The translations under genes were made by a program, and so were the position numbers. A stretch of DNA of 64,000 nucleotides from Mucilaginibacter sp. (GTDB lineage: Bacteria; Bacteroidota; Bacteroidia; Sphingobacteriales; Sphingobacteriaceae). This document shows positions 4,876-63,701 of the stretch, one piece after another. The number at the start of each line of letters is the position of its first letter. The first letter of the stretch is position 1. The stretch is taken from assembly GCA_035547095.1 (NCBI GenBank), contig DASZVE010000015.1:17306-81305 (forward strand), given 5' to 3'. The notes under the pieces are model-generated. The model was not told the origin of the DNA and searched no databases. It saw only the letters and a list, made by a program, of their open reading frames with translations.

Positions 4876-4935
4876 CCTTTCACCTTTGACCTTTCGCCTT
4901 TCACCTAACTCCCCGACTTCCGCAGACTTCCGGAC
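4876..4935 (-). repeat. CCTTTNN heptad array (complement of NNAAAGG, 4 units, 4876-4903) plus a GTCCGRAA-type element in reverse orientation (4912-4935)
   Basis: The units read cctttca cctttga cctttcg cctttca, then ccgacttccgcagacttccggacg. The upstream ORF extension 4886-4954 reads through it. Confidence 0.8.
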
Positions 4936-4954
4936 GAAACACTATCTTTGCCGC

Positions 4955-6295
4955 ATGGCAAAAAGCTTCGACGACTTCAAATTTAACCGGCAGATACTGA
5001 ATGCCATTGCCGATGCAGGTTATACCGAAGCTACCGACATACAGCAAAAAGCCATCCCACCGATACTGAACGGTCAGGATGTGATGGGCATAGCCCAGAC
5101 CGGTACGGGCAAAACCGCGGCTTATGTGCTGCCCATTATTATGCGGCTGAAATATGCGCAGGGCGAAAATCCACGTGCACTGATCGTGGCGCCAACGCGC
5201 GAACTGGCTATCCAGATAGAGGAAAACATCAGGGCCTTTGCCAAATACACCGACTTACGTACAGTAATACTTTACGGCGGTATCGGTCCAAAAGCGCAGA
5301 CCGAACAGGTAAAAAAGGGCGTCGATATCATTGTCGCAACACCGGGCCGTTTTATGGACATTTACCTGGCGGGTAACATCGTTACCAAAACATTGCAAAT
5401 ATTGGTTCTGGACGAGGCCGACAAGATGATGGATATGGGGTTTATGCCACAGATCAACCGGATTCTGGAGGTCGTGCCCCGCAAACGGCAGAACCTGCTT
5501 TTTTCGGCAACCATGTCGGACAAGGTGCGACAGCTTTCGGCCAATTTTCTTGAATTTCCTACGGAAATCGAAGTTACGCCCCAGGCCACGCCCGCACAGA
5601 CCGTCGAGCAGAAACTGTATCACGTTCCGAATATTAAAACTAAAATCAACCTGCTTAAATACCTGCTGGACGAGGAAGGCGATATTAAAAAACTGATGGT
5701 TTTTTGCAAAACGCGCAGCAATGCTGAGAATGTTTACAAATTCCTGGGCCGGCGTTATGGCGAAGAGGAGGTAAAGGTTTTGCATGCCAATAAGGGGCAA
5801 AACACACGTATTAATTCCATTAACGCTTTCAGGGGCGATGAAGTGAAAATACTGGTCGCTACCGATGTTGCCGCGCGGGGCATCGATGTGAGCGATGTGA
5901 GCCATGTGATCAATTTCGATGTGCCTTTTGTAATTGAGGATTATGTGCACCGTATTGGCAGAACCGGACGTGCCTTCCAATCGGGCGAAGCGATTACCTT
6001 TTGTACCCCGGCCGAGGAATATTACATCGGCAAGATCGAGAAACTGACCCGGCAGCCGATCCCGGTTTTAACTTTGCCGGAAGAAGTTTTCGTCGAGCAA
6101 ACGCCGTTCGAGGAGCGCCAGGACCAGGCCCGCGAGATCGACCAGCAAAAACGCCGCGAGAATCCGGAGTTTAAAGGCGCTTTTCACGAGAAGAAGCAGG
6201 TTAAAGGTGAAAGGGTAAAGGCGAAAGGTTTAACCAAAGTCCGAAAGTCCGGAAGTGCGCATAAGTCCGAAAGAAAGGGCAGAGGTAGAAAATGA
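4955..6295 (+). CDS. DEAD-box ATP-dependent RNA helicase with a basic C-terminal tail
   Basis: Contains AQTGTGKT (motif I), VLDEADKM (DEAD box), SAT and HRIGRTGR. The start is taken at ATG 4955 (MAKSFDDFKF). Confidence 0.9.
   Translation: MAKSFDDFKFNRQILNAIADAGYTEATDIQQKAIPPILNGQDVMGIAQTGTGKTAAYVLPIIMRLKYAQGENPRALIVAPTRELAIQIEENIRAFAKYTDLRTVILYGGIGPKAQTEQVKKGVDIIVATPGRFMDIYLAGNIVTKTLQILVLDEADKMMDMGFMPQINRILEVVPRKRQNLLFSATMSDKVRQLSANFLEFPTEIEVTPQATPAQTVEQKLYHVPNIKTKINLLKYLLDEEGDIKKLMVFCKTRSNAENVYKFLGRRYGEEEVKVLHANKGQNTRINSINAFRGDEVKILVATDVAARGIDVSDVSHVINFDVPFVIEDYVHRIGRTGRAFQSGEAITFCTPAEEYYIGKIEKLTRQPIPVLTLPEEVFVEQTPFEERQDQAREIDQQKRRENPEFKGAFHEKKQVKGERVKAKGLTKVRKSGSAHKSERKGRGRK
6201..6273 (+). 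repeat. NNAAAGG heptad array (6201-6228) followed by a GTCCGRAA-type element (6239-6273), lying inside the helicase 3-prime coding end
   Basis: The units read ttaaagg tgaaagg gtaaagg cgaaagg, then gtccgaaagtccggaagtgcgcataagtccgaaag. The region translates as KGERVKAKGLTKVRKSGSAHKSERKG. Confidence 0.85.
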
Positions 6296-6618
6296 AAGAA
6301 GATAATAATAAAGTCTCCCCTTCCGGGGGAGATTTAGAGGGGGCCAGGGGCATTCGCATCACACCGCTCAATTTCGCAACAGCTTTTTTCCTGTTCCTGG
6401 CGGTATACATTTCGATTTACGGTGTCCAGGTTATAGGCGCGCACTACCCCTATGCGCTCAAAAGCTGGATGTTTACCGCCATATTTGTGCTTTTTGCTAT
6501 TGCCGTGTCATTTATGGACCTTATCCTGCGCAATTTTTTCCGCCAGACTAAAAAACTGTGGATAGTGGAGCTAAGCTTTATAACTTTGGCGATTATTTTA
6601 TTTTTACTTGCGAGATAA
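6292..6618 (+). CDS. Hypothetical small membrane protein (start uncertain)
   Basis: The ATG overlaps the helicase stop (ATGA). The first about 20 codons are the 36-nt GC-rich repeat, and three hydrophobic spans follow. Confidence 0.3.
   Translation: MKEDNNKVSPSGGDLEGARGIRITPLNFATAFFLFLAVYISIYGVQVIGAHYPYALKSWMFTAIFVLFAIAVSFMDLILRNFFRQTKKLWIVELSFITLAIILFLLAR
6310..6345 (+). repeat. 36-nt GC-rich hairpin plus mirror-purine-tail element (family C)
   Basis: The sequence reads aaag tctcccc ttccg ggggaga ttt agagggg gcc. The stem pairs 6314-6320 with 6326-6332. The mirror repeat is gggggaga-ttt-agaggggg. Confidence 0.85.
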
Positions 6619-6621
6619 ACA

Positions 6622-6954
6622 ATGAAAAAAGCAGAGATCAAACTCACGATAGACCTGGATGATAACAACGTGCCCGAAAACATCACATGGGAATCGACGG
6701 ATGCGCAGAACAAGGAGGCACTCCCGGTAAAATCGATGATGCTGTCGCTTTGGGACCATAATTACAAAAATACCCTCCGCATCGATCTGTGGACAAAGGA
6801 TATGCCTGTAGACGATATGAAGCGCTTCTTTTACGAGACCCTCCAAACCATGGGCGACAGCTTTCTGAGGGCAACCGGCGAAAAGAACATTGTGGAGGAC
6901 CTGCGCGACTATTGCGCCCATTTTGCCGATAAAATGGAGATCAGCCAGAAATAA
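6622..6954 (+). CDS. gldC: Gliding motility protein GldC
   Basis: 110 aa. LRIDLWTKDMPVDDMKRFFYETLQTMGDSFLRATGEK matches the conserved GldC core as I remember it. Confidence 0.8.
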   Translation: MKKAEIKLTIDLDDNNVPENITWESTDAQNKEALPVKSMMLSLWDHNYKNTLRIDLWTKDMPVDDMKRFFYETLQTMGDSFLRATGEKNIVEDLRDYCAHFADKMEISQK

Positions 6955-6955
6955 C

Positions 6956-7399
6956 ATGAAACTCACGTCATTCGTATCGTTCGCCGGTTTTATAATACTT
7001 ATTGCTGCTACGTTTTGCCCGCTGTTTCGTCCGCTGCACATTGTTAACTGGGACATGTACAAGGCCAACATGCCTTACGGAATCGTGGTATTGCTGATAT
7101 CGGTAGTTGGTATATTGGGAGTGGTTTTGATGCAGCGCAAATTGGTTCGCCTTACGGCCTGGTTATCCGTGATATTGGTGGCGCTGTTTTACGTCCTTTC
7201 GCTGCTGAAGATCCATTACTCATTCACTTTCATACCTTTCCACTCGTTCGAAAAATTCATGGAACGCCAGATCAAATTCAAATGGGGCTGGTGGTTGTTA
7301 TGTATAGGTCCGCTGTTTGCGCTGTTTGGCGCCCTAAAAGACAAACCAAAATATAAAGCGCCTGTTGAGAACACGATGGATCAAAAAGCCGCCGTATAA
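6956..7399 (+). CDS. Hypothetical membrane protein
   Basis: The ATG lies 1 nt after the gldC stop. The protein has four hydrophobic spans. The track ORF 6890 extends upstream into gldC and was trimmed. Confidence 0.5.
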   Translation: MKLTSFVSFAGFIILIAATFCPLFRPLHIVNWDMYKANMPYGIVVLLISVVGILGVVLMQRKLVRLTAWLSVILVALFYVLSLLKIHYSFTFIPFHSFEKFMERQIKFKWGWWLLCIGPLFALFGALKDKPKYKAPVENTMDQKAAV

Positions 7400-7405
7400 T
7401 TTGAG

Positions 7406-8230: not shown

Positions 8231-8236
8231 CGGCCT

Positions 8237-8719: not shown

Positions 8720-8722
8720 GTT

Positions 8723-8806
8723 TCAAAGGTACAAAGGCGAAAGGATAAAGGTGAAAGGTTAATCTGGCCATAATCAAACCTTTTACCTTTGGCCTTTTAC
8801 CTTTCA
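8723..8806. repeat. NNAAAGG heptad array (8723-8758) facing its complement CCTTTNN array (8779-8806)
   Basis: The left array reads tcaaagg tacaaagg cgaaagg ataaagg tgaaagg. The right array reads cctttta cctttgg cctttta cctttca. It lies in the divergent ogt/ccmB spacer. Confidence 0.85.
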
Positions 8807-8823
8807 CCTCACAAAAAGTATCT

Positions 8824-9516: not shown

Positions 9517-9520
9517 GGAA

Positions 9521-9548
9521 GTCAGAGGTCTGAAGTCGGAGTGAGTCA
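9521..9548 (+). repeat. Heptad word array GTCNNAG, directly after the ccmB stop
   Basis: The units read gtcagag gtctgaa gtcggag tgagtca. Confidence 0.6.
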
Positions 9549-9672
9549 ACCTTAAAACTCAGAACTTAATAAGTGTAGTGTATCAGCAGAGCCTGCTACA
9601 CTGGCATGATCGTGTCAGTGAGGCTGTATTGATTGAAAATGTTCTGATAACTCATCAATAAGAATTATTTTA

Positions 9673-12808: not shown

Positions 12809-13999
12809 ATGAGTTTCAGAAGGATTATACTGCTTCTCGTTTTTTTACCTTTTTTCTCTAGCGCCCAAACCGTCATCTCAGGTAAAGTAACCACCTCCGA
12901 GTCGCTTACGCCTATTGGAAAAGTCAGCGTTTTCCTGAGCAACTCGTCTTATGGTACTGAAACGGCCGAGGATGGTACATTCAGACTTGTCGGCGTTAAA
13001 CCCGGTCAATACGAACTGGTTGCCAGTTCGGTTGGGTTCCAGGAGTATTCGGAATTCATTTTAGTAGGCAGTTCGCCCATAACAGTCAATATCAAGATGC
13101 TGCCGAAGATGAATATGCTGCGGGGCGTGGTGATATCAAGCAATGCCGACTGGAAAAAGAACTATGAGCTGTTTCGGAAGGATTTTATCGGAGAGTCGGA
13201 GAATGGCAAAAAATGCGATGTTGCAAACCCTCATACTATGAACCTGGTGTACCACGGCAAAAGCCGGATGCTTGAGGCCTGGTCGAACGACTTCCTGGTA
13301 GTGGATAACAGGGCGCTGGGATACCGGGTTAAGTTCCTGGTGGATACTTTTTCGAGCTCGGGCTTGAGTGGTATTGTTGAGTGGCAGGGCAAGGTGGTTT
13401 TCGAGGAAATGAAAGGCAGCGAAGAACAGAAAAAGGAATGGCGTGAGAAACGCGAGCATATCTACTATGGCTCGCAGCGCCAGTTTTTCCGTTCCCTCTA
13501 TAACAACACGCTTACGCAGGATGGGTTCATCATGTATCACCTGAGCCGCGAACCGAACGCCGACAGGCCGCCCGAAGGCGTGATCCTGGCGAAGATCAAA
13601 TACTTCAGGGAAATAAGATTTAACAGGGATTCATTTAATTATTGGGTCGGGAAGGAAAACCTGTCCAAGTATTACCACGAGCACCTGGATAAAACCCCGC
13701 TCCAGCCTTACCAGGTTTTTGCACAAACGAGTAAGCCCGGTTTGTTTGTACTATCGTTTCGGGACTGTTTGTATGTCGTTTATACCAAAAGACGCGAGGA
13801 GACTGATTTTAAGGACGTATACCGGACGCTGGATATGGAAAATTTTGAAACCAGCATACTTACCCTGATGAAGCCCTATGCCATTTTTGATATGAATGGT
13901 GTGGTAGTCGAGAATGTGCCGCTGGCGGAAGGGAGCTGGTCAAAAGCAAAATTGGGAGAACTTTTACCGTTCGATTACGTGCCGGGCGAGAATAAATAG
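12809..13999 (+). CDS. Carboxypeptidase-regulatory-like (CarboxypepD_reg) domain protein
   Basis: A signal peptide is followed by VISGKVTTSESLTPIGKVSVFLSNSSYGTETAEDGTFRLVGVKPGQYELVASSVGF. Confidence 0.7.
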   Translation: MSFRRIILLLVFLPFFSSAQTVISGKVTTSESLTPIGKVSVFLSNSSYGTETAEDGTFRLVGVKPGQYELVASSVGFQEYSEFILVGSSPITVNIKMLPKMNMLRGVVISSNADWKKNYELFRKDFIGESENGKKCDVANPHTMNLVYHGKSRMLEAWSNDFLVVDNRALGYRVKFLVDTFSSSGLSGIVEWQGKVVFEEMKGSEEQKKEWREKREHIYYGSQRQFFRSLYNNTLTQDGFIMYHLSREPNADRPPEGVILAKIKYFREIRFNRDSFNYWVGKENLSKYYHEHLDKTPLQPYQVFAQTSKPGLFVLSFRDCLYVVYTKRREETDFKDVYRTLDMENFETSILTLMKPYAIFDMNGVVVENVPLAEGSWSKAKLGELLPFDYVPGENK

Positions 14000-14108
14000 T
14001 CCGAAAGTCCGGAAGTCCGTGTAAGTCCGGAAGTATAAATAAATGATTGGGCTCAAAACATCCATGTCACTTCTTTCGGACTTTCCGACTTGTGCGGACT
14101 TTCGGACT
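13999..14108. repeat. GTCCGRAA-type element (13999-14034, starts in the stop codon) and its inverted copy (14070-14108)
   Basis: The first copy reads gtccgaaa gtccggaa gtccgtgtaa gtccggaa gt. The second reads cttctttcggactttccgacttgtgcggactttcggact. Confidence 0.85.
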
Positions 14109-17319: not shown

Positions 17320-17414
17320 ACGGACAATAGTCAACAGTGAACGGTGAATAGTGAATAGTGAATGGTCAGAATGCTTGTCCTGTTCAACTTTCTGACTTTT
17401 GCCGACTTTCGGGC
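17317..17414 (+). repeat. Heptad word array TGAAYRG (7-8 units, 17317-17365, starts at the stop codon), then a degenerate reverse GTCCGRAA-type array (17387-17414)
   Basis: The heptads read tagacgg acaatag tcaacag tgaacgg tgaatag tgaatag tgaatgg. The second array reads actttctg acttttgccg actttcgggc. Confidence 0.75.
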
Positions 17415-17462
17415 TATCGATAATGATTCTAAATAGTATTAATGATTTGCAATAAACTTTAT

Positions 17463-22483: not shown

Positions 22484-22557
22484 GTTGTACGTTAGACGTA
22501 GAATCCTGGTAATAGAAAAATTAAAAACGTATAACGTAGCACGTACAACGTAAAACA
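22484..22557. repeat. Heptad word arrays TNNNACG in the fdx/iscX spacer
   Basis: The left array reads ttgtacg ttagacg tagaatc. The right array reads aaaaacg tataacg tagcacg tacaacg taaaaca. gttgtacgt (22484-22492) is complementary to acgtacaac (22541-22549). Confidence 0.7.
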
Positions 22558-22560
22558 TAT

Positions 22561-22803
22561 ATGACAGACGACAAATACGCCCTGCCTATCCACTGGAACG
22601 ATTACGAGGACATTGCTATAGAGCTTTATGAGAAGTTCGGCGATGATTTCGACGAGTCGAAAATATACCGCATCCGTTTTACCGACCTCCTGGAATGGGT
22701 GTTAAGCCTGCCTAACTTTAAGGGTACGCGTGAAGAGTCGAACGAGGGTCACCTGGAGCAGATACAGTCGGCCTGGGTATATGAGTGGCGGGACCACCAG
22801 TAG
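22561..22803 (+). CDS. iscX: Fe-S assembly protein IscX-like
   Basis: 80 aa and acidic. WNDYEDIAIELYEKFGDDFD...IRFTDLLEWV resembles IscX/YfhJ. It sits after fdx, as in isc operons. Confidence 0.6.
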   Translation: MTDDKYALPIHWNDYEDIAIELYEKFGDDFDESKIYRIRFTDLLEWVLSLPNFKGTREESNEGHLEQIQSAWVYEWRDHQ

Positions 22804-22838
22804 GTAGTTTGCAGTTGGCAGTCGTCAGTTTGCATTCC
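22804..22838 (+). repeat. Heptad word array GCAGTTN (5 units), directly after the iscX stop
   Basis: The units read gtagttt gcagttg gcagtcg tcagttt gcattcc. Confidence 0.7.
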
Positions 22839-22904: not shown

Positions 22905-23426
22905 GTGGAATCATTTCTAAGTAAGCTCAAAGATATTTCGACGTTTGTTTTTGATGTCGACGGTGTTATTACGGACGGGACAGTGTATGTTACCGAGAGC
23001 GGCGAACAGTTCAAGTCGTTCAACATCAAGGATGGTTATGCATTGCAACTGGCGGTAAAGTTAGGATACAATGTTTGCGCCATTTCGGGCAGCCGCTCTA
23101 AAGCGTCGCTTTACAGGCTCAATAGCCTTGGCGTAATGGACGTGTTGGTCGGCGCGCATAAAAAATCGGACAATTTCAATTCTTACCTCGAGTCGAAGCA
23201 CGTGGGGCCGCTCAGCACGTTGTATATGGGCGACGACATAACCGACCTGGCAGCAATGAAACTGGCCGGCTTGCCCGTATGCCCGGCCGATGCAGCCGAA
23301 GAGATCAAGGCCATTAGCTATTATATATCTCCGTTTCCGGGTGGAAAGGGCGCCGTACGCGACGTAATCGAAAAGGTAATGAAGGTGCAGGGTAAATGGT
23401 TAAATGACGAGGCATATAGCTGGTAA
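22905..23426 (+). CDS. kdsC: KDO 8-phosphate phosphatase (HAD-IIIA)
   Basis: Contains FVFDVDGVITDG, KDGYAL and YMGDDITDLAAMKLAGLPVCPADA. The start codon is GTG. Confidence 0.8.
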   Translation: MESFLSKLKDISTFVFDVDGVITDGTVYVTESGEQFKSFNIKDGYALQLAVKLGYNVCAISGSRSKASLYRLNSLGVMDVLVGAHKKSDNFNSYLESKHVGPLSTLYMGDDITDLAAMKLAGLPVCPADAAEEIKAISYYISPFPGGKGAVRDVIEKVMKVQGKWLNDEAYSW

Positions 23427-23505
23427 TTGGTCAATGGTCGATTGACGATAGTCCATAGCCGATTCAGATGATAAAAACAATGGACCATGGACTATGGTCA
23501 ATGGA
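23423..23505. repeat. Heptad word array GNCNATN (23423-23464) and complementary CNATGGN array (23478-23505)
   Basis: The left array reads gtaattg gtcaatg gtcgatt gacgata gtccata gccgatt. The right array reads caatgga ccatgga ctatggt caatgga. Confidence 0.75.
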
Positions 23506-23514
23506 CGAAAATTA

Positions 23515-35770: not shown

Positions 35771-35783
35771 AAGGATAAAGGTG
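35751..35783 (+). repeat. NNAAAGG heptad array (4 units) containing the nucleoside hydrolase stop codon
   Basis: The units read cgaaagg taaaagg tgaaagg ataaagg. The 18-mer aggtgaaaggataaaggt (35765-35782) recurs inverted at 37266-37283. Confidence 0.85.
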
Positions 35784-35804: not shown

Positions 35805-37205
35805 ATGGATTTTAAGCTGGAAAAGGAATTCAGCAAGGCTGGAATATTGCAGGAAGTCGATGCTTTAAAAAAGCAGATCAACGATGCAAGGCCGTTGCCA
35901 AACGATGTGGAAGACCGCGTGATGCAAAAGCTTCGCCTGGAGTGGAATTATAACTCCAATGCAATCGAAGGCAATAAGCTGAATTATGGTGAAACGACAG
36001 CTTTGCTGATGCATGGCATTACTGCTAAAGGCAAACCGCTCAAAGATCATTTGGACATACAGGGCCATAATGATGCTATCGATTTTCTTCAGTCGATTAT
36101 TAAAGAGAACAGGCCATTTACAGAAGCGGACATTCGCCAGCTACATGAGATAACATTGGTAGAACCCTACCCGGTTAAAGCACAAACAGCTGATGGTAAG
36201 TCGACTACCAAGCAGATCAAGATTGGTGTTTATAAAACATCACCTAATCATGTAAAAACGATCACCGGCGAAATACATTATTATGCTACTCCTGAAGAAA
36301 CACCAGCCAAAATGCAGGATTTGATGGCGTGGTATAGTGAGATTATAAAAGATAAGGACGTTCATCCTATTGTAATAGCAGCCTTATTTCAGCATAAGTT
36401 TACCGAGATACATCCTTTTGATGACGGTAACGGCCGTGTTGCACGCTTAGTGATGAATTTAATATTGATGAGGCATAGTTATCCGCCCGCCGTGATCAAA
36501 ATGGACGACAGGCACAACTACTATTCGCTATTAAGCCAAGCGGATGCGGGTAATAGTTGGCCGTTTATCGATTATATTGCGGAATTGTCGTTTAGCTCAC
36601 TACAAATCTATATGAGAGCGATAATGGGCGGAGATATTGACGACGATGAAGATATTGATAAAGAGATTGCTCTTTTTAAGCTGGAATTACAGTCCCAATT
36701 GGCGAATAAAAAAGAAATAAACGCGAAAGGAATTTACAATCTATGTATTCAGGAAGTATTGCCACTTGTTAATGGTTTGGCAAAAAAAGCTTTCGCTTTC
36801 AATGATTTATTCTTTAGAAATGAATATTGGATTAATGTAATTTATAAAAATATTACGCGCAATAGTAAAGATCGCTTAAATACGGGCATAGACTTGAACC
36901 AAGGAAATTTATCTCAATTTTTTGATTTTTTTTTAAATGAAAGAAATAAAATCGAAGCGATCGAATTCTCAATAAGGTTATATAATTTTAAGGATGAAGA
37001 TAATACTTTTGATGTAACTGGCTCACTCGTATTCAATTTTCTTAAGTACGAATACGAAATCATTAATTATAATAGGGAGCTATATATGTTGAAACTCTAC
37101 GGTGAAAAGATAAGTCAACAAGATATAAAGAAAATCATAGGCACCGTTGTCAAAGATATAGAGAGTTTAATACGTAATAATCTAAAAAGCCCAGAATCAA
37201 ACTAA
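35805..37205 (+). CDS. Fic-family protein (class II, with internal inhibitory helix) and an A+T-rich C-terminal extension of unknown fold
   Basis: The Fic motif is HPFDDGNGRVARL. The inhibitory (S/T)xxxE(G/N) motif is SNAIEG. The last about 180 aa are N/K/I-rich. Confidence 0.9.
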   Translation: MDFKLEKEFSKAGILQEVDALKKQINDARPLPNDVEDRVMQKLRLEWNYNSNAIEGNKLNYGETTALLMHGITAKGKPLKDHLDIQGHNDAIDFLQSIIKENRPFTEADIRQLHEITLVEPYPVKAQTADGKSTTKQIKIGVYKTSPNHVKTITGEIHYYATPEETPAKMQDLMAWYSEIIKDKDVHPIVIAALFQHKFTEIHPFDDGNGRVARLVMNLILMRHSYPPAVIKMDDRHNYYSLLSQADAGNSWPFIDYIAELSFSSLQIYMRAIMGGDIDDDEDIDKEIALFKLELQSQLANKKEINAKGIYNLCIQEVLPLVNGLAKKAFAFNDLFFRNEYWINVIYKNITRNSKDRLNTGIDLNQGNLSQFFDFFLNERNKIEAIEFSIRLYNFKDEDNTFDVTGSLVFNFLKYEYEIINYNRELYMLKLYGEKISQQDIKKIIGTVVKDIESLIRNNLKSPESN

Positions 37206-37221: not shown

Positions 37222-37283
37222 TTCTTTCGGACTTTCCGACTTATGCGGACTTCCGGACTAAACTAACCTTTATCCTTTCACCT
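37222..37283 (-). repeat. Reading on the dnaJ strand: NNAAAGG array starting at the dnaJ stop (37283 down to 37266), then a GTCCGRAA-type element (37259 down to 37222)
   Basis: The plus strand reads ttctttcggactttccgacttatgcggacttccggact ... acctttatcctttcacct. Confidence 0.85.
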
Positions 37284-38440
37284 CATTCAAAATACTCCTT
37301 CATCCGTTCGAAGAAACTCTTTTCGTTCTTACCCGGACTCGGTTTAAAATTCGGCGAGTTTTGCAGCTTTTCCAGCAATTCGCGTTCTTCCCGGCTTAAT
37401 GCTTTTGGCGTCCAGATATTGATGTGGATCAGTTGGTCGCCGCGGTGGTATGAATTTACCTCCGGAACGCCTTTGCCCTTCAGGCGCAATATCTTACCGC
37501 CCTGTGTGCCGGGGTCGATCTTGATCTTGGCTTTGCCGTCTATTGTCGGCACTTCGACGTTCGTACCCAGAGCCGCATCGATAAAGCTGACATGCAGGTC
37601 GTAGATAATGTTATTGCCGTCGCGTTTTAAGGTTTCGTGGGGTATTTCTTCGATCAGGATGATCAGGTCGCCCGCAATGCCGCCGCGCGGCGCGGCATTA
37701 CCTTTGCCGCCCATGCTCAATTGCATGCCTTCGCTAACGCCTGCGGGTATGTTTATGCTGATCAGCTCTTCATCGCGTACTACTCCTTCGCCATGACAAA
37801 CCGTACATTTGGCAGTGATCACCGTGCCTTCGCCGTTACAGGTGGGGCAGGTGCTGGTGGTTTGCATCTGGCCGAGGATGGTATTCGTTACCCGGCGCAC
37901 TGCACCCTGGCCGCCGCAGGTCTTACAGGTCTGCACCGACGAGCGGTCTTTCGCGCCCGTACCGTCGCACGTTTTACAGGCGACCTGTTTGTTTACCTTA
38001 ATTTTCTTTTCGGCTCCGTTAGCGATCTCTTCAAGCGTTAGCCTTACCTTTATGCGCAGGTTGCTGCCGCGTTGCACACGGCGGCCGCCGCCTTGTCTTC
38101 CGCCGCCAAAAAAGCCCTCGAAGGGACTTCCGCCGCCGAAAATGTCACCAAACTGGCTGAATATATCTTCCATATTCATGCCGCCGCCGCCAAAACCGCC
38201 TCCATTGGCCGATTGTGCGTTGGCCGCATGCCCGAACTGGTTGTAACGCTGGCGCTTATCCGGATTGCTAAGCACCTCGTATGCTTCGGCCGCCTCCTTG
38301 AACTTTTCCTCTGCCTCTTTGTCACCCGGATTTTTGTCAGGGTGGTATTTGATGGCCATCTTACGATAAGCCTTTTTGATCTCTTCGGCATCGGCGCCCC
38401 TGGCGACACCCAGTACGTCGTAATAATCTCTTTTTGACAT
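37283..38440 (-). CDS. dnaJ: Molecular chaperone DnaJ
   Basis: Has the J domain (HPDKNPG), a G/F region and four CxxCxGxG zinc-finger repeats. Confidence 0.95.
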
Positions 38441-38447
38441 AGATCCA

Positions 38448-38541
38448 ATTATTGAATTATTGAATTACAGAATTATCGAATAGGCCTCATTAGCAAACTA
38501 TCAATAACTCATTAATTCAATAATTCAGTAAATCAATAATT
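38448..38541. repeat. Octad word array AATTAYNG (38448-38479) and complementary CANTAANT array (38502-38541) in the dnaJ/grpE spacer
   Basis: The left array reads aattattg aattattg aattacag aattatcg. The right array reads caataact cattaatt caataatt cagtaaat caataatt. Confidence 0.8.
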
Positions 38542-39153: not shown

Positions 39154-39281
39154 AGTTTTGAGTTGGCAGTTCTAAGTTGACAGTAAGCAGTAGTCAGTTG
39201 GCAGTTTACAGTTATCGGTTGGCACAATTGGTAAGTTGATTTAAATACTGCCCACTGTGAACTGCCCACTGGAAACTGATT
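39154..39281. repeat. Ten in-register heptads AGTNNNN (39154-39223) followed by five in-register heptads ACTGNNN (39247-39281)
   Basis: The first array reads agttttg agttggc agttcta agttgac agtaagc agtagtc agttggc agtttac agttatc ggttggc. The second reads actgccc actgtga actgccc actggaa actgatt. Confidence 0.9.
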
Positions 39282-39964: not shown

Positions 39965-40168
39965 TTACAATTCCAATTTTAGGATCTGTCCGAAAGGCAG
40001 CTCCCTGACAATATTCATAATATATTCCGTCCTGGCGCCCAAACCAACCTTTTCCAGTGATTTTTCAGGCCTGTCTACCCTGAAATAAGCCAGCAAAGTG
40101 AACTGGTCGTCGCGCAGCTGCACGTAATCCGGTATCTTGGCGACGCCTTTTACTTTGATAATATACAT
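39965..40168 (-). CDS. Hypothetical 67-aa protein
   Basis: The stop lies 1 nt before the ftsE start. The start is taken at ATG 40168, because the upstream extension reads through the heptad array. Confidence 0.4.
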   Translation of the reverse strand: MYIIKVKGVAKIPDYVQLRDDQFTLLAYFRVDRPEKSLEKVGLGARTEYIMNIVRELPFGQILKLEL

Positions 40169-40175
40169 TTTGAGG

Positions 40176-40248
40176 TTACAGGTAAAAGGACCAAGGTTAA
40201 AGGTTGATGCGGACTTACCTTTCACCTTTTACCTTTTGGCTTTCACCT
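40176..40248. repeat. NNNNAGG heptad array facing a CCTTTNN array, with one GTCCG-type unit between them
   Basis: The left array reads ttacagg taaaagg accaagg ttaaagg. The middle reads ttgatgcggactta. The right array reads cctttca cctttta ccttttgg ctttca. Confidence 0.8.
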
Positions 40249-40268
40249 CCTCCAAAGGTATTGTTATT

Positions 40269-41767: not shown

Positions 41768-41807
41768 AGGGGAATGTGTGTTTTCAATACATTCCCCTAT
41801 TTTTTTT
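41768..41807 (+). terminator. Rho-independent terminator of the ferredoxin gene
   Basis: The 10-bp stem is aggggaatgt / acattcccct with an 11-nt loop. It is followed by a-tttttttt. Confidence 0.85.
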
Positions 41808-42631: not shown

Positions 42632-45600
42632 TCAATTTTTTACAAAGCTGGTAACACCTACTACGCTTTTGTTCAGGTTATCAATTACCTGTACTATATA
42701 AGTGCCAGGTTGCAGATTGGTTATATTGGTTTGCCACGTTGATTGCTGCGTTAATTCCTGCCTTACTAACAAACCGCTTGAATTGACTATCCTGATGTCA
42801 TAGGGCGCAGGATTCGGGTCCCGGGTTATTTTCAGATTAATAACGCTGGCCGCGGGATTCGGATAGGCTGTGATAAGCGTCGCCAAAATGTTTTCGTGCC
42901 TTGAATAATTTAATGACGCAATGTTTGAATAGGTGATGTTGTTATTGATGTCATCCAATTTCAGCCGGTATTGATTTTGTCCATGGGCAGGCGATCTGTC
43001 AACGAATGCATACCGACCGGTGCCATCGGATTGCATACTGCCAATCGGGTTAAACTTAATTCCGTTATCAGTGCTCCTTTCTATATAAAAGGCAGTATAG
43101 TCCGATTCGTTTTTTGTTTTCCATATCAACAGCGAACCTTCGGTAATTTTGTTGGCGTTGAAACTCAATAGTTGTAATGCGGGAACGGGATCCTTACTGA
43201 TAACCAATTGAAAGCGTTTGCCGCCAAATGTTGTAGTGTCGGCTTTGTTGATCGTAAACGAATATACCGGATTGGTGCGTAGGTTGATCGAATCGGGCTT
43301 GGTCCTGTCCCTTAACCATACGCCATAGGTGGGCTGCAGGTTAGAGAGCTGGGTTAGTTTTAGCTGGTATTGCCCTGTCGCTGTGCCATCAACCAGCAGC
43401 GGAATTACTTGCGGTGTTTTCGCAGGAAATGGCAGGCGGTCGATACAAAGTTTTATGCTGTCGCTTGCCATGGCCGACAGGCTCACTGCCGGGCTAATTC
43501 CGCCCATGTCCCCGGCATCTTCGGTAATCTTATAGCAATTGCTGGCACTATCGTTCAGGCGGACCACGATCTCGTCCGTATTGATCGAGTCTTTAGATAG
43601 CCGGATACGCACCAGCGGCTCGTCGCCCGAAGGCGTCGCCTTCGGTTTTCCCATCAGAATGTTCAGTTGAGAAGCAGATGGTTGCGTGGTCGTCTTCGCG
43701 GTTTCCCTGAAAGACAGAGTTTGGCTCGTTGAGCTCGCCCTTATAAAAAAACCCTGCCCGCTTGCGATCATATTGCTCGCCGAACCTACAGCCGTTCCGG
43801 GGTTAATATTGCTTATGGTGTCTGCCGAAACAATAGTGCCTGTTTTTTGCATGTAGGCTTCGTATTGTTTATTGGTTGGATTGAACATATATATCGTGGA
43901 CGTCAAGCCTCCACCGCCATAAATAGACGAATTGGCAACGGTGCTGTTGCGGTTGAACTTTTCCCAATTAATGGTGGCGGCATACGGATTGCCGACCAGG
44001 CAATATCCCCTGACAGCCGAATTAGCAAGGCTGGGGCTGTTGGTATAACCCAGGTAGTTATCCTGCCGGTACCACAGTTTTACGTTTACGGTGCCCGTAT
44101 TTAACGTCCCGGTATTTGTAAACGTCACATCTTCGGGGTAATTGTATGGCAGCGACGTTTTAGTACCGCTGGTGCTTCCGTTAGGGGTTGTTTTATTCCC
44201 TCTGAAAAAGAATAATACGCCGTTGCCCACCGGTATTGTAACAGTAGTATCGTTGACGTTGGTTAGTGTTAACCGTTTTTGGGTACCTATATTATAAACC
44301 GGGGAGTTATTGATCTTTGCTATACCTTTAAAATCCCCAGTGGTAAAGTTTACGTCGCTCGGTATAATATCTTCCCGGTAAATGTAGGTTGATGGGTTTC
44401 CAACGCTAAAAAATCCGCCGCCGGATGGACCGGTAATAATCGCGCTGTTTGCCAGCCAGCTTAAGTCAAATACTTTGTTACTGCCGGCGGTACCGGTATA
44501 AACAGTTGACGACATTAACCGGTAGCCGCGTCTCGAAACATCAGTGGGATAGCTGCCCTTAACAAATCGCTGCACGTTAATAGTTCCGCTGATACTTGCG
44601 CCCGATGAAAGTGTTGCAAAGGTTGCCGAACCGGTAGCATCGCTCAGCAACGTCAGGCTATTGGAGGCTGACGCGTCCAGCAGCGCCGGGTTATTTACGG
44701 TCAACACCCCCAGCGGCGAAATATTGTTGTTGCCCTGCAATACCGTGTTTGCTCCGCTGCCTGATGTAGATATCGTAACATTGTTGAAAATAGTGCCCGT
44801 TACGACGTTGCTGGGATAATAATTGTTGCCGGCCGTTCCTCCTTTTATATATTGTGTGCCCGAACCATCCATCAACAGGGTAGAACTGTTGGTCACAAAA
44901 TCAACATTCGTTCCGGCCGAATTGTCAAGGTTTCCGGCCACGTTCATAGTACCGCTGGCGACCTGTTTTGGCGTAGCGCCGGTAAAAACCACATTGTTCT
45001 GATAGTTTACACTGGTCGACACGACCTGCGTGCTGTCCGAGGCATTATTCCCATCGTAGGTTACCACACCGCCTACATTATAATTGGCCGTGTTAAGCCA
45101 GCTTCCGGCAATATTGATGGGCAATGAGCCCGAATACATTGCGCCGTTGCCGATAAAATTATTTCCTATGTCTATTTCTGTAAGCTGTGAATCGAAAGTT
45201 ACGCTATTGGTCGTATTTAAAACCCCGAAGTTTCCAAGCACGTCAAACACAGTGGTATTATCGGGCGATGTCCCGCCGTTAACCGTAATGTTCGCGCCGG
45301 TAAATATTACGTTTGGGGGAAGGTTTGTCCCGGAGGCATTCGGTTTTACTAAATTAATTACCTGGTTCGTCGCAGTAAATTCCAGCGTTGCTGTCGGATC
45401 TATTACATCGTTATCATGAAAATTAAAGGTGCTTCGCGAAATATAAAGCGCATTAGCGCCGATCGTCGCATGGTAGTTGGTTCCTTCCACCAGCGTGGCA
45501 TTGGCATTAAAGATGGCATTTGGCTCGACATATAAATAATTGATGGTCACGTAAGAGCCCGACGCCTGGTTCAGCAATTCCACGCCTTTATCCGTAGAGG

Positions 45601-46126
45601 AGCCATAATAAGTATTTTGTACATCCAGGTAGCCGACATTACCGCTGAATTTGGTTGTTTGAGGAAAATATTGGGCGGCGGTGCCGTTCAAAATTATCTT
45701 TGCGGTAGAGCTTGATGGGAATTTAAGCGTTCCGCTGCTAAAATTGCCCGCTAAGGTAAGCACACCGGTATTGCTTATGCTAAATGTGGTGGTACTGGCC
45801 ATTGATATATTGCCCGGCACTGTGAGCGAGCCATTAAGCGTTAACGTGGCAGTTTTGCTCGTGCCGAAAGTGATGGATGCCGCATACGCTGTTTCCGACG
45901 ACGATATGGTTGGCTGGTTTGTAAACGAAGTGCTGCCGATGCTTACCGCATCGTTTATTGTCGGCACCCCCGACGGCGACCAGTTGCTGGCTGTATTCCA
46001 GTCGGTGCTGGACGAGCCCTTCCAGACATAGGTACTCGCATATGCATTATTTAACGAAAATGCTGTTACTACAACAATAATAATTGCCCGCAAAAAACCC
46101 TTGAATAAAGTGAATGCTGTTTTCAT
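42632..46126 (-). CDS. Large secreted repeat protein with a T9SS C-terminal sorting domain
   Basis: Has a signal peptide and T/S/N/G-rich beta-strand repeats. The C-terminus is YPNPAASVINLKI...LQPGTYIVQVID...VTSFVKN (Por secretion tail pattern). Confidence 0.85.
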   Translation of the reverse strand: MKTAFTLFKGFLRAIIIVVVTAFSLNNAYASTYVWKGSSSTDWNTASNWSPSGVPTINDAVSIGSTSFTNQPTISSSETAYAASITFGTSKTATLTLNGSLTVPGNISMASTTTFSISNTGVLTLAGNFSSGTLKFPSSSTAKIILNGTAAQYFPQTTKFSGNVGYLDVQNTYYGSSTDKGVELLNQASGSYVTINYLYVEPNAIFNANATLVEGTNYHATIGANALYISRSTFNFHDNDVIDPTATLEFTATNQVINLVKPNASGTNLPPNVIFTGANITVNGGTSPDNTTVFDVLGNFGVLNTTNSVTFDSQLTEIDIGNNFIGNGAMYSGSLPINIAGSWLNTANYNVGGVVTYDGNNASDSTQVVSTSVNYQNNVVFTGATPKQVASGTMNVAGNLDNSAGTNVDFVTNSSTLLMDGSGTQYIKGGTAGNNYYPSNVVTGTIFNNVTISTSGSGANTVLQGNNNISPLGVLTVNNPALLDASASNSLTLLSDATGSATFATLSSGASISGTINVQRFVKGSYPTDVSRRGYRLMSSTVYTGTAGSNKVFDLSWLANSAIITGPSGGGFFSVGNPSTYIYREDIIPSDVNFTTGDFKGIAKINNSPVYNIGTQKRLTLTNVNDTTVTIPVGNGVLFFFRGNKTTPNGSTSGTKTSLPYNYPEDVTFTNTGTLNTGTVNVKLWYRQDNYLGYTNSPSLANSAVRGYCLVGNPYAATINWEKFNRNSTVANSSIYGGGGLTSTIYMFNPTNKQYEAYMQKTGTIVSADTISNINPGTAVGSASNMIASGQGFFIRASSTSQTLSFRETAKTTTQPSASQLNILMGKPKATPSGDEPLVRIRLSKDSINTDEIVVRLNDSASNCYKITEDAGDMGGISPAVSLSAMASDSIKLCIDRLPFPAKTPQVIPLLVDGTATGQYQLKLTQLSNLQPTYGVWLRDRTKPDSINLRTNPVYSFTINKADTTTFGGKRFQLVISKDPVPALQLLSFNANKITEGSLLIWKTKNESDYTAFYIERSTDNGIKFNPIGSMQSDGTGRYAFVDRSPAHGQNQYRLKLDDINNNITYSNIASLNYSRHENILATLITAYPNPAASVINLKITRDPNPAPYDIRIVNSSGLLVRQELTQQSTWQTNITNLQPGTYIVQVIDNLNKSVVGVTSFVKN

Positions 46127-47305: not shown

Positions 47306-47313
47306 GTTTGGGC

Positions 47314-47383
47314 TTATAGTTCATGGTTCATAGTTCATAGGCAATTCCGTATTTGCCATGAACTATGAACCATGATCCATGAA
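47314..47383. repeat. Heptad word array TCATRGT (47314-47341) and complementary CYATGAA array (47356-47383), directly after hisIE
   Basis: The left array reads ttatagt tcatggt tcatagt tcatagg. The right array reads ccatgaa ctatgaa ccatgat ccatgaa. Confidence 0.85.
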
Positions 47384-47971
47384 CTACTTATGCCTTCCTT
47401 CCAAATTCTTCGCGATCGTCTCTAAACTCATACCTTTTTCGCGAAGCAAAACCAGTAAGTGGAATACCAGGTCGGAGGTTTCATCAATGAATTCAGTTTC
47501 GCTTTGAGCGAGCGCTGCGATAACCGTTTCAACGGCTTCTTCACCAACTTTTTGGGCGATCTTATTCAGCCCCTTGTTGCGAAGCTTGTTCACATACGAG
47601 CCTTCAACCGGATGCTCATACCGATCGTTAACGATTTCCTCCAGCTCCAGGATAAAGTTTTGGTTATATTCTGTCTTAAAGCAGCTTCGCGAACCGGTAT
47701 GACAAGTGGGCCCGTCGGCTTTAACTTTGATGAGCAGGGTGTCGTTGTCGCAATCTTCATGGATGCTTTTCACATGCAAAAAGTTGTTGCTTGTCTCCCC
47801 CTTGGTCCACAAACGGTTTTTGGAGCGCGAAAAGAAAGTGACGATGTTTTCGGCTACAGTCTTTTCATAAGCTTCCTGGTTCATATAACCCAGCATCAGC
47901 ACTTCTAAGGTTTGCTCGTCCTGTATAATTGCCGGGACCAGCCCGTCGCTTTTGTTGAAATCGATATTCAT
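47384..47971 (-). CDS. hisIE: Bifunctional phosphoribosyl-AMP cyclohydrolase / phosphoribosyl-ATP diphosphatase
   Basis: Contains GLVPAIIQD...[22 protein letters not shown], then a HisE helical part. Confidence 0.95.
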
Positions 47972-47992
47972 ATCCTATCAATGTGCGTTGGA

Positions 47993-48067
47993 TGTCATAT
48001 TGAGGCACTCGAAACATGCGGGCAAAGGCCTTCGCGCTCATACTTCCGGTGCCTCAGTATGACACCC
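47993..48067. repeat. 75-nt hairpin element, copy A (hisF/hisIE spacer)
   Basis: By hand count it matches 48865-48939 at 70 of 75 positions. The terminal 14-nt arms are tgtcatattgaggc / gcctcagtatgaca. Confidence 0.9.
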
Positions 48068-48076
48068 TTTTTATTT

Positions 48077-48841: not shown

Positions 48842-48864
48842 TTTAATAAATATTTGAGGGCGGC

Positions 48865-48939
48865 TGTCATGTTGAGGCACTCGAAACATGCGGGCAAAGG
48901 CCTTCGCGCACATACTTCGAGAGCCTCAGTATGACACCC
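48865..48939. repeat. 75-nt hairpin element, copy B (hisA/hisF spacer)
   Basis: See copy A. The internal arms gaggcactcgaa / ttcgagagcctc also pair. Confidence 0.9.
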
Positions 48940-48944
48940 TTTTG

Positions 48945-50290: not shown

Positions 50291-50300
50291 TTTGTTGTTA

Positions 50301-50361
50301 GAACCAAGAATCAAGAGTCAAGACAGAATCTATCTTGGTTCTTGGCTCTTGATTCTTGGTT
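50301..50361. repeat. Heptad word array GARTCAA (50301-50328) and complementary CTTGRYT array (50334-50361) in the hisB/hisH spacer
   Basis: The left array reads gaaccaa gaatcaa gagtcaa gacagaa. The right array reads cttggtt cttggct cttgatt cttggtt. Confidence 0.85.
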
Positions 50362-50365
50362 CTCT

Positions 50366-53989: not shown

Positions 53990-54027
53990 GCCCTTCCGCC
54001 AACTGGCGGAGAGGGTTGGGGTGGGGC
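53990..54027. repeat. GC-rich hairpin with a G-rich tail (family D), ending at the hisG stop
   Basis: The sequence reads gcccttccgcc aact ggcggagagg gttggggtgggg. The architecture is as at 565-600. Confidence 0.7.
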
Positions 54028-56664: not shown

Positions 56665-56761
56665 GTGTTTATAGTTGTATCAGTTGTAGAAGTTGCATTA
56701 ATTGAATTGGTTTGCTAATCGATCCAAACCAATACAACTAATATAACCAATCCAACCAAAA

Positions 56762-62128: not shown

Positions 62129-63606
62129 TGGGAAAGCCAACAGGATTTAAGGAGTATAACAGGGAATTGCCCGATAAAGTGGCGCCGGCTGAACGTGTAA
62201 AAAATTACAACGAGTTTGAAGGCCTTTACAATGAACAAAAGCTGAATGAACAGTCGGCACGCTGCATGAACTGCGGTATACCGTTCTGCCATTCAGGCTG
62301 CCCGCTTGGCAATATCATACCAGAATTCAACGATGCCGTTTACCGCAAGAACTGGGAAGAGGCGTACCGGATTTTATCATCAACCAATAATTTCCCCGAA
62401 TTTACCGGCAGAATATGCCCTGCGCCCTGCGAATCAGCTTGCGTGTTAGGTATCAACAAACCCCCGGTTGCCATCGAAGAGATCGAGAAGCATATTATCG
62501 AAATCGCTTATGAGAAAAACCTGGTAAAACCCACCGCGCCACTGGTTAAAACGGGAAAGAAAGTGGCTGTAGTAGGCTCGGGTCCTGCCGGGTTGGCCGC
62601 CGCGGCGCAATTGGCTAAGGCTGGCCATGCTGTTACGGTTTATGAGCGTGATGACAAACCCGGAGGTTTGCTGCGTTATGGTATCCCGGATTTCAAGCTG
62701 GAAAAATGGGTGGTTGAGCGCCGCGTCCAGATAATGGAAGAGGACGGGGTCGTATTTAAATGTAATGTCGAGGTTGGGAAAGATTTTCCCGCCGACGAAT
62801 TGACGAAAAATTTCGACGCCGTGATATTGGCGGGCGGATCTACAATCCCCCGTAATCTGAATATCCCCGGCAGGGAACTGAAAGGTATCCATTTTGCGAT
62901 GGATTTCCTGAAACAGCAGAACAAGCGTGTAAGCCAAATAGATTTTGATGCCGAGGACATATTGGCAACGGACAAGGATGTGGTGATCATTGGCGGCGGT
63001 GATACCGGCAGCGACTGTGTAGGTACCTCAAACCGCCATGGTGCGAAGTCGATCCACCAGTTCGAGGTGATGATGAAGCCGCCTGTTGACCGCACTCAAA
63101 ATATGCCATGGCCGACCTACCCGATGATCCTGAAAACGACCAGCAGCCACGAAGAAGGTTGCCAGCGTTACTGGGGCATCAATACCAAAGCGTTTTTGGG
63201 CGACGAAAACGGTAATCTTCGAGCCTTAAAAGTGACCGATGTAACCTGGGAGACCGATGTGTTGGGCCGCCCAATGAAATTCACCGAAATTGAAGGCTCG
63301 GAACGCGAGATAAAATGCCAGCGCGTATTCCTGGCGATGGGTTTCCTGCATCCGCAGCATGAAGGGATGATCAATGGCCTGCATGTCCAGCTGGATGACC
63401 GCAAAAATGTGAAAGCTAAAGAAGGCGTCTATCGTACCAATGTGAGCAAGGTGTTTACCGCGGGCGACATGCGCCGCGGACAGTCGCTGGTGGTATGGGC
63501 TATATCTGAAGGTAGGGAATGCGCCCGCAAGGTCGACGAGTTCCTGATGGGTCATTCGATACTGGAAAGCAAGGACGCGGTAAACCAGTTTGAGCAGGTT
63601 TTCTGA
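62128..63606 (+). CDS. gltD: Glutamate synthase small subunit
   Basis: Contains the Cys clusters CMNCGIPFCHSGCP and CPAPCESAC, and VAVVGSGPAGLAAA. The start overlaps the gltB stop (TAATG). Confidence 0.95.
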   Translation: MGKPTGFKEYNRELPDKVAPAERVKNYNEFEGLYNEQKLNEQSARCMNCGIPFCHSGCPLGNIIPEFNDAVYRKNWEEAYRILSSTNNFPEFTGRICPAPCESACVLGINKPPVAIEEIEKHIIEIAYEKNLVKPTAPLVKTGKKVAVVGSGPAGLAAAAQLAKAGHAVTVYERDDKPGGLLRYGIPDFKLEKWVVERRVQIMEEDGVVFKCNVEVGKDFPADELTKNFDAVILAGGSTIPRNLNIPGRELKGIHFAMDFLKQQNKRVSQIDFDAEDILATDKDVVIIGGGDTGSDCVGTSNRHGAKSIHQFEVMMKPPVDRTQNMPWPTYPMILKTTSSHEEGCQRYWGINTKAFLGDENGNLRALKVTDVTWETDVLGRPMKFTEIEGSEREIKCQRVFLAMGFLHPQHEGMINGLHVQLDDRKNVKAKEGVYRTNVSKVFTAGDMRRGQSLVVWAISEGRECARKVDEFLMGHSILESKDAVNQFEQVF

Positions 63607-63663
63607 TGTGCAGATGTTGAGCAAATGTGCAGATGGGGATCAAGTAATAATTTTACGGGAATG

Positions 63664-63701
63664 CTCTTTCGGACTTATGCGGACTTCCCGACTTTCAGAC
63701 T
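63664..63701 (-). repeat. GTCCGRAA-type element (reverse orientation on plus, sense for the minus-strand gene at 63797)
   Basis: The sequence reads ctctttcggacttatgcggacttcccgactttcagact. Confidence 0.8.

Follow-up and report, generated by a model that had tools for sequence, protein, structure and literature searches.

Tandem heptamer and octamer arrays in the intergenic spacers of a Mucilaginibacter chromosome segment: a Bacteroidota counterpart of known heptameric repeats

What kind of element fills intergenic spacers with short words repeated in tandem, and how would it arise and persist? The question is raised by a 64,000-nt stretch of a Mucilaginibacter chromosome (assembly GCA_035547095.1, contig DASZVE010000015.1, positions 17,306 to 81,305), hereafter the window, in which an initial annotation had described arrays of degenerate 7- or 8-nt words, often followed by an array of the complementary word. 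The reported spacer periodicity is real. In the intergenic DNA, 6.8 kb in all, Tandem Repeats Finder (TRF) located 13 period-7, 5 period-8, and 4 period-9 arrays, where segment-wise dinucleotide shuffles gave 0.26, 0.2, and 0.36, respectively, which places heptad and octad periodicity in the window above chance. Base-match rates across the 41 spacers of at least 30 nt peaked at lags 7 (z = 8.5), 14 (z = 4.9), 21 (z = 5.7), and 8 (z = 4.3), none of which peaks was present in the coding DNA of the window; higher-order periods of 14, 16, and 21 were also reported by TRF. On a crude map based on open reading frames (ORFs), with 89% of the window coding and 11% non-coding, 13 of the 18 period-7 clusters fall in the non-coding fraction, most of the others overlapping gene ends. 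At the TRF threshold, 14 of the 41 spacers (about a third) bear arrays, distributed as 12 of 29 co-directional, 2 of 8 divergent, and 0 of 4 convergent spacers. A reading of the sequence placed the array start within 5 nt of a stop codon or overlapping it in 10 of 14 cases (overlapping in 7), bearing out the claim that arrays typically lie at or near stop codons.

Period 7 or 8 was confirmed by TRF at nearly all previously listed positions (4875, 6198, 8733/8778, 17326, 22526, 22798, 23477, 35751, 38447/38501 with period 8, 39161/39247, 40173/40217, 47316/47356, and 50300/50333), with unit matches of 63–90%. The arrays listed at 9521, 22484, and 23423 are visible in the sequence but fall below the TRF score, the first two being present but weak (2–4 units), and the one listed at 37266 amounts to only 2–3 CCTTT units. 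Not on that list are arrays of octamers (6236, 13998/14073, and 37224), paired period-9 arrays (56673/56727), and copies of an AGTCCG-containing family (17378 and 63664). Variation was concentrated at fixed unit positions in only 3 of 20 arrays (permutation test, P < 0.05), namely those with a constant core and variable positions at 39154 (P = 0.017), 39247 (P = 0.005), and 38501 (P = 0.049). The "N" positions of the words are largely ordinary divergence or drift in short arrays.

An inverted partner array lies 10–50 nt away at 10 loci, in agreement with the estimate that about half of the arrays have a complementary companion. The resulting stems are long and some are near-perfect, with energies of about −19 to −55 kcal/mol when folded as RNA, and four pairs from the window and its relatives folded as DNA gave z-scores of about −3 to −5 against shuffles. 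The hairpins of two related loci, L005 and L084 (L-numbers are labels of related loci), folded into uninterrupted stems of ~32 and ~36 pairs. Where pairs are best preserved, the variable positions agree between the arms, which are in-register inverted copies with one best register, contrary to the proposal that they pair in several registers. Several familiar explanations were rejected. Clustered regularly interspaced short palindromic repeats (CRISPR) were rightly excluded at the outset, since the 7–9 nt units directly abut and there are no 23–50 nt repeats with unique spacers. Intrinsic terminators, likewise discounted earlier, are ruled out by AT-rich stems with no T run behind any of them; conventional GC-stem and T-tract terminators stand elsewhere, at 41768–41798 and ~63735–63775, and periodic hairpins were not among the matches of a stem-plus-T-tract search, save a marginal inner stem at 50319–50337. 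A search of the window against Rfam, both at gathering scores and at E ≤ 0.1, found no known structured RNA, and a common regulon was discarded because the genes next to the arrays share no function (glycosyltransferase, RNA helicase, ogt, ccm, Fe-S assembly, maf, chaperones, and his genes).

The source of the window, which has a GC content of ~47%, was verified from its proteins: DnaJ (37283–38440, minus strand) shares up to 94% identity with proteins labelled Mucilaginibacter (Sphingobacteriaceae, Bacteroidota), and homologues of the RhlE-like helicase give the same host. These proteins, together with 0 matches in the window to the cyanobacterial HIP1 motif, rule out a cyanobacterial source. 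TAnnTTTG boxes of the Bacteroidota type stand upstream of genes, and no tRNA or tmRNA genes were found in the window. Gene order around grpE-dnaJ and in the his operon is kept across Sphingobacteriaceae, which makes spacer-by-spacer comparison possible. Relatives were found through identical or near-identical proteins, with average nucleotide identities (ANI) of ~94% (GCA_035545315.1), ~90% (GCA_018266995.1), ~80% (GCA_018267005.1), and ~77% (GCA_035546675.1); ~36 kb of the closest (94%) relative was compared, and a wider set comprised 80 loci from a DnaJ scan of species-representative genomes.

Against the 94% relative, all 10 array-free spacers were colinear, with 90–98% identity and length changes of at most 5 nt; 6 of 10 array-bearing spacers were restructured, by a ~two-unit indel, loss, partial or whole replacement, or large insertion. 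Between the ferredoxin gene (fdx) and iscX, where TNNNACG arrays form a weak left arm (22484–22500) and a right arm (22526–22561, plus strand), the left arm is 13–14 nt (~two units) shorter in the window than in L094 and L096 (94% and 90% ANI), and the word is kept down to 80% ANI. The TGGTCNA and CNATGGA hairpin between a HAD hydrolase gene and maf (23423–23506, plus strand; TRF, sequence, and DNA fold) is lost in the 94% relative L094, leaving only GATCCATGGAC; L095 has the same word, and in L096 both arms have changed, from TAGTCCA/TGGACTA to TGGTTCA/TGAACCA. In the divergent ogt/ccmB spacer, the AAAGGNN and CCTTTNN hairpin of the window (8723–8812; TRF; DNA fold z = −4.2) is replaced by an AGTCCG hairpin in L098 (94%) between flanks that are 94–97% identical, and L099 (80%) retains AAAGG. 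The octamer hairpin between grpE and dnaJ (AATTATTG and CAATAATT arrays, 38447–38541, minus strand; TRF and fold) has its AATTATTG type in common with the 77% relative, the 94% relative carrying an AAATCGA type as do other Mucilaginibacter; in L084 the hairpin contains a GC-rich insert symmetrical in both arms. This spacer measures 4–16 nt in 13 other Sphingobacteriaceae and 59–187 nt, with hairpins of other words, in others, and the grpE-dnaJ hairpins are best read as gains relative to the empty sites.

At the spacer between a LuxC-like gene and a small ORF, an AAAGG/CCTTT hairpin (40173–40251, minus strand; TRF and fold) stands between a promoter-like TACCTTTG box and the ATG; the arrays are AAAGC/GCTTT in L088, and the site is empty in L005, L006, and L008. 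The small ORF itself (39965–40170, minus strand), which lies between the LuxC-like and ABC ATPase genes, is conserved in the related loci compared, has 67 aa as called in L087 and L088, and gave no Pfam match. In hairpin-free species the TACCTTTG box sits ~6 nt upstream of its ATG, a position that suggests a leaderless or near-leaderless mRNA. Two further hairpins (both TRF and fold) lie next to his genes, TCATRGT with CYATGAA in the hisIE/WD40 spacer (47313–47384, minus strand) and GARTCAA with CTTGRYT in the hisB/hisH spacer (50297–50363, minus strand). Their words recur at orthologous spots in M. lappiensis and M. conchicola, where the units are arranged in another order. The hisIE/WD40 word is at the same spacer in L004 and L007 and is common in metagenome contigs; for hisB/hisH, L007 has the same word in another unit order, and L004 has it just upstream of hisH. 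Alignments of filled and empty sites (luxC-orf, grpE-dnaJ, HAD-maf, and ogt/ccmB) revealed no consistent target-site duplications or fixed ends. Whole-unit changes between close relatives were few, namely the fdx-iscX indel and one ~9-nt extra unit in L098, the other differences being losses or replacements.

We consider it somewhat likely, at a probability of about 0.6, that the arrays evolve fast and are products, mainly at the DNA level, of slippage and of copying between arms, with some ectopic spread. Replication slippage would grow and shrink arrays in whole units, and inverted copying of an array would then yield a hairpin-forming quasi-palindrome. Changes in one arm would be copied to the other, most plausibly via intramolecular template switching at quasi-palindromes, a process established in Escherichia coli; such arm-to-arm copying is suggested by the concerted word changes, the symmetric insertions, and the near-perfect stems. 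Slippage plus inverted duplication had been among the mechanisms put forward in the initial annotation, and it fits the ~two-unit indel, the concerted word change, and the symmetric insertions. Hairpins are also lost outright, as in the one loss observed, and at least two families, AGTCCG and AAAGGNN, spread to, or replace elements at, other loci in the manner of repetitive extragenic palindromic (REP) sequences. Because a 7-nt unit shifts the reading frame, arrays would persist only where a frameshift is harmless, which could explain why they extend from a stop codon as far as the following promoter or start codon and why several themselves hold the stop codon; several arrays appear to supply the stop codon that they overlap. 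Transcribed pairs are predicted to fold into long stem-loops with a possible part in mRNA stabilisation or processing, a function that the data do not require. The arrays also recur, in a patchy way, in relatives: among DnaJ-centred loci, period-7 arrays numbered 10 in 21 kb of M. lappiensis, 6 in Mucilaginibacter sp. FT3.2, 7 in Daejeonella, 8 in Sediminibacterium, and 5 in Sphingobacterium thalpophilum; several Pedobacter loci had 1–3, and many other Bacteroidota loci had none.

Several points weigh against this account. Only a single clean unit-multiple indel was seen (13 or 14 nt, according to the alignment used), and selection for pairing would yield the same covariation of arms as template switching. 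Neither the exchange of AAAGG for AGTCCG between nearly identical flanks nor the phylogenetically incongruent grpE-dnaJ alleles represent local slippage; both need transposition, ectopic conversion, or allelic recombination. Since the units are degenerate, with 63–90% matches, present-day slippage rates may be low, and the 7-nt preference is left unexplained by the slippage model. Hairpins kept at the same spacer to ~80% ANI (fdx-iscX, along with the hisB-hisH and hisIE-WD40 words shared with L004 and L007) could reflect selected function, and the strand-bias test given below is crude.

The alternative that survives best holds, as a tentative possibility, that the hairpins are non-autonomous mobile elements inserted by a trans-acting enzyme, similar to REPs, to REP doublets forming hairpins (REPINs), or to MITEs (miniature transposable elements with inverted repeats), with the tandem words acting as repeated binding or recognition sites within the arms. 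Two families lend themselves to such a view. An AGTCCG octamer element occurs in 7 copies in the window (at 4899, 6238, 13998, 14071, 17378, 37222, and 63664) with the fixed internal order AGTCCG-R-AAGTCCG-CAYA-AGTCSG-R-AAGTCCG-AAAG, and is also found in close relatives; the 8 AAAGGNN/CCTTTNN arrays of the window have the common end CCTTTCACCTC. These copy numbers, and the single word class shared by the arrays at 22804 and 39154 (39161), overturn the idea that every locus has a word to itself. Among 96 arrays from the window and related loci we counted 66 word classes, and words of the AAAGG type, AACTATG/AACCATG, AAGAATC, and AAGTATC were found in several genomes at different spacers (window and 80 loci). 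The argument that the arrays cannot be REP-like because the word differs by locus therefore fails, with at least two dispersed families in the window and the same words elsewhere in other genomes. Two ATAGTTC hairpins of L004 lie in different spacers and have CGAAAGC at the start of the loop in common, the grpE-dnaJ and luxC-orf spacers are known both filled and empty, and the ogt/ccmB spacer underwent a family-for-family swap at 94% ANI. Spacers of the his operon also carry two copies, 93% identical, of a non-periodic 82-nt hairpin repeat (47990–48071 and 48862–48943), and GC-rich hairpin repeats (AGTCTCCCCTTCCGGGGGAGA-like) occur near 6313–6330 and 53995–54020; this genome has several REP-like families besides the periodic ones, so that the periodic hairpins belong to a broader set of hairpin repeats in its spacers. 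Mobility is opposed by the lack of consistent termini or target-site duplications in filled-versus-empty alignments, by the differing number and order of units among copies, and by a ~two-unit indel and gradual concerted word changes that indicate local processes. Most words are single-copy in the window, with no multi-copy dispersal seen within the 64 kb beyond the AGTCCG and AAAGG families, and a Pfam scan of 30 window ORFs turned up no transposase or gene resembling a REP-associated tyrosine transposase (RAYT).

We regard it as rather unlikely that the paired arrays are selected RNA structures, that is, intercistronic or 5′-untranslated-region stem-loops acting in 3′ exonuclease protection, RNase processing, or translation coupling in a phylum without Shine-Dalgarno-based initiation. 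Their distribution over co-directional, divergent, and convergent spacers is consistent with this role, which has also been proposed for cyanobacterial hairpins of a similar kind (PMC2670836), as are folds read as extending from a stop codon to 3–10 nt before the next start codon, the exact placement of the luxC-orf hairpin between the conserved box and the ATG, and the retention of a hairpin at the same spacer despite sequence change. The transcribed strand, however, folds no better than its antisense: over 64 spacers in transcript orientation, the fold was better on the antisense strand in 37 and on the transcribed strand in 22 (Wilcoxon p = 0.09), with 279 and 221 G-U pairs, respectively, in a comparison that is crude for its use of whole-spacer folds and non-independent orthologues. 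Neither fold energy nor G-U counts show a bias toward the transcribed strand, a result that speaks against strong selection at the RNA level and, together with the in-register arms, against the suggestion that register-tolerant RNA hairpins had been selected. Moreover, the corresponding spacers of close relatives and many related genera have no hairpin and differ in no other visible way, the hairpins vary from perfect to decayed, some arrays are found upstream of promoters or within the 3′ coding end of a gene, and there was no Rfam match.

That a dedicated mechanism common to several phyla, other than generic slippage, makes and spreads heptamer hairpins seems improbable to us; candidates for it would be an enzyme working in 7-nt steps or a mobile system specific to hairpins. 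The idea draws on the breadth of the phenomenon. A metagenome scan with 2.5 units of the word ATGAACY retrieved at least 120 contigs (L100–L219) with GC contents of 28–65%, and among the matches listed most reach at least 4 units, 55 of 139 have a nearby inverted partner (often GGTTCAT), only 18 lie inside long ORFs, and 7 loci are HIP1-rich, which suggests that the latter contigs are cyanobacterial. The 730 kb of these contigs listed, a sample chosen for carrying one heptamer array, contained 273 period-7, 29 period-8, and 22 period-6 arrays, the additional arrays being built from other heptamer words. This spread of ATGAACY, the presence of TAACTGA in three phyla, the dominance of period 7 (in a pre-selected sample), and the family replacement at 94% identity all leave room for a dedicated mechanism. 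ATGAACY contains both ATG and TGA, so that a mini reading frame starts in every unit and ends shortly afterwards. The hisIE/WD40 spacer of Mucilaginibacter sp. FT3.2 (L009), 1.1 kb long, holds a perfect array of 12.6 TAGTCAT units (3488–3575 of that locus), an uninterrupted repeat of the sort that should slip often, in contrast to the window's degenerate arrays.

Very improbable, finally, is a reading of the arrays as tandem sites for a single-strand nucleic-acid-binding protein with a ~7-nt footprint (cold-shock, S1, or CsrA-like), as proposed by MacGregor 2015 for the TAACTGA repeats of Beggiatoaceae (PMC4679880, which points out that each heptamer of a heptamer repeat is bound by one CspB protein), since despite the constant core and variable positions of the 39154, 39247, and 38501 arrays, most arrays have no significant positional concentration of variation, one genome holds many unrelated words next to genes without common function, half of the arrays are locked in duplex with their complement, and arrays are lost or exchanged between near-identical genomes.

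The remaining arrays of the window complete the picture. The divergent spacer between a GT87 gene and rhlE contains a CCTTTNN array of the AAAGG family (4875–4906, 4.6 units; TRF), mostly replaced in L098 (94%) and absent in L099, and an adjoining partial AGTCCG-family octamer element with GACTTCCG units (4907–4936), the L098 copy of which is 9 nt (~one unit) longer. The rhlE-like DEAD-box helicase gene (4955–6295) contains in its 3′ coding end an AAAGGNN array of ~5 units (6198–6232, plus strand; TRF, Pfam, and translation) and an AGTCCG-family octamer element of 4 units (6236–6273, plus strand; TRF), which in L098 has AAAGCNG heptads in its place. Its last ~30 residues (VKGERVKAKGLTKVRKSGSAHKSERKGRGRK) are encoded by these arrays (6198–6295); the tail in the 94% relative is basic and comes from another array, and those of other Mucilaginibacter are unrelated and basic, following a conserved ...FKGAFHEKK. 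Repeat arrays thus appear to have overprinted a coding C-terminus.

A weak AAGTCNG-type array of 3–4 units directly follows the ccmB stop codon (9519–9553, plus strand; seen in the sequence, below the TRF threshold). The spacer downstream of ccmB is 213 nt long in the window and 783 nt in L098, where it includes an extra 131-aa ORF on the opposite strand (14692–15087 of L098). An inverted AGTCCG-family octamer pair (13998–14034 and 14071–14108; TRF and fold) begins on the stop codon of its upstream gene and is kept in L098 with point changes only. A GTGAAYR array (17326–17366) precedes a degenerate AGTCCG-family copy (17378–17415; plus strand, TRF), and a CAGTTGG-type heptamer array (22798–22834, plus strand; TRF, 66% matches) overlaps the iscX stop codon. 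An AAAGGNN array overlaps the stop codon of a nucleoside hydrolase gene (35751–35783, plus strand; TRF), and an AGTCCG-family element (37222–37259) with 2–3 CCTTT units abuts the dnaJ stop codon in a convergent spacer (37222–37285), the element being in the same place in L082, L083, and L084. These two arrays flank a Fic-domain gene (35805–37205), which lies between dnaJ and the nucleoside hydrolase gene in the window, L084, L005, and L006, and is absent in L082, L083, and L086.

In the spacer between the ABC ATPase gene and grpE, an AGTNNNN array of ~9 units is paired with an ACTGNNN array (39154–39281, minus strand; TRF and fold), and differences from L087, counted from the alignment, fall mainly at the variable unit positions. 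Period-9 arrays of AGTTGTAGA and AACCAATAC form a hairpin at 56673–56759 (minus strand; TRF and fold), and an AGTCCG-family element (63664–63701) has the gltD stop codon on one side and a canonical terminator on the other. Apart from the arrays, a 1164-aa gene with a Por secretion tail (42632–46126, minus strand) also occurs in L087 and L089 and partially in L003, and is missing from the otherwise syntenic region in most other Mucilaginibacter and Pedobacter loci.

Heptamers are the commonest long simple repeats in many bacteria, with their 7-nt preference, origin, and function unexplained (PMC4692102). Sphingobacteriaceae offer a tractable system in this respect, combining many words, paired hairpins, close genomes, and fixed syntenic spacers, in which gain, loss, replacement, and change of both arms can be followed. 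For annotation, the arrays account for odd stop-codon contexts, variable C-terminal tails (RhlE), spurious small ORFs, and assembly breaks. Should the hairpins prove to alter mRNA fate in operons such as his or grpE-dnaJ, they would be a source of fast regulatory divergence.

It had been stated that no described class of element matches these arrays; however, heptameric tandem repeats, including hairpin-forming inverted pairs, have already been reported as short tandemly repeated repetitive sequences (STRRs) and as heptameric long simple sequence repeats (SSRs). Inverted heptamer pairs lie between genes in the hupS-hupL spacer (PMC2670836) and in Xanthomonas and Nostoc (PMC4692102), and heptamer repeats occur in Beggiatoaceae, cyanobacteria, and five Bacteroidetes (PMC4679880). 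Cyanobacterial STRRs are 7-bp tandem repeats capable of forming hairpins, as at hupS-hupL, for which transcript stability or translational coupling has been proposed and whose function is unknown (PMC2670836). The window shares with them an excess of tandem 7-nt units, several words per genome, a mostly intergenic location that includes operon spacers, and inverted hairpin arrangements. It differs in its host, a Mucilaginibacter and not the heterocystous cyanobacterium of the original definition, and in the absence of HIP1; its units show more degeneracy, octamer and nonamer arrays occur among the heptamer ones, and two families with a fixed multi-unit order are dispersed like REPs. The CAGT-containing words at 22798, 39154, and 17326 resemble STRR1 and STRR3.

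The likeness extends to heptameric SSRs, which according to Mrazek 2007, as cited in PMC4679880 and PMC4692102, are over-represented in many bacterial genomes, slippage tied to the polymerase footprint having been offered as an explanation. In Xanthomonas and Nostoc, GGGAATC and GGGGAYT repeats, respectively, are intergenic, vary among close relatives at the same spacer, and are sometimes found as inverted pairs (PMC4692102). Heptamers as the dominant long-SSR class, an intergenic location, slippage as the origin proposed in the work so cited, differences in length and sequence at the same spacer between close relatives, and inverted stem-loop pairs in some cases are all features in common with our arrays. 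The Xanthomonas repeats, by contrast, use essentially a single G-rich, quadruplex-prone word, compared with a dozen or more mostly AT-rich words in the window, and the window arrays are short (3–9 units) and imperfect. MacGregor 2015 reported TAACTGA and other heptamer repeats in a few Bacteroidetes spacers (PMC4679880). Those too are intergenic direct repeats near start or stop codons, and the word recurs across phyla as ATGAACY does here; the study tracks a single word, which for the most part has one orientation and stands immediately upstream of start codons, and inverted partners are rare in it (1 indirect repeat against 169 direct sets).

With REPs, bacterial interspersed mosaic elements, and REPINs, the AGTCCG family, the AAAGG family, and the 82-nt repeats share the character of short, dispersed, intergenic hairpin repeats in operon spacers, including those of his operons. 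REPs are nonetheless single imperfect palindromes with a conserved 5′ tetranucleotide, mobilised by RAYTs, unlike the tandem-word arms and variable unit number seen here, and the Pfam scan of 30 ORFs showed no RAYT gene. A match to MITEs is opposed by the lack of fixed ends or consistent target-site duplications at filled versus empty sites. We found no paper describing such arrays in Sphingobacteriaceae. Taken together, these comparisons identify the arrays not as a new class but as the Bacteroidota counterpart of cyanobacterial STRRs and heptameric long SSRs, new in Sphingobacteriaceae.

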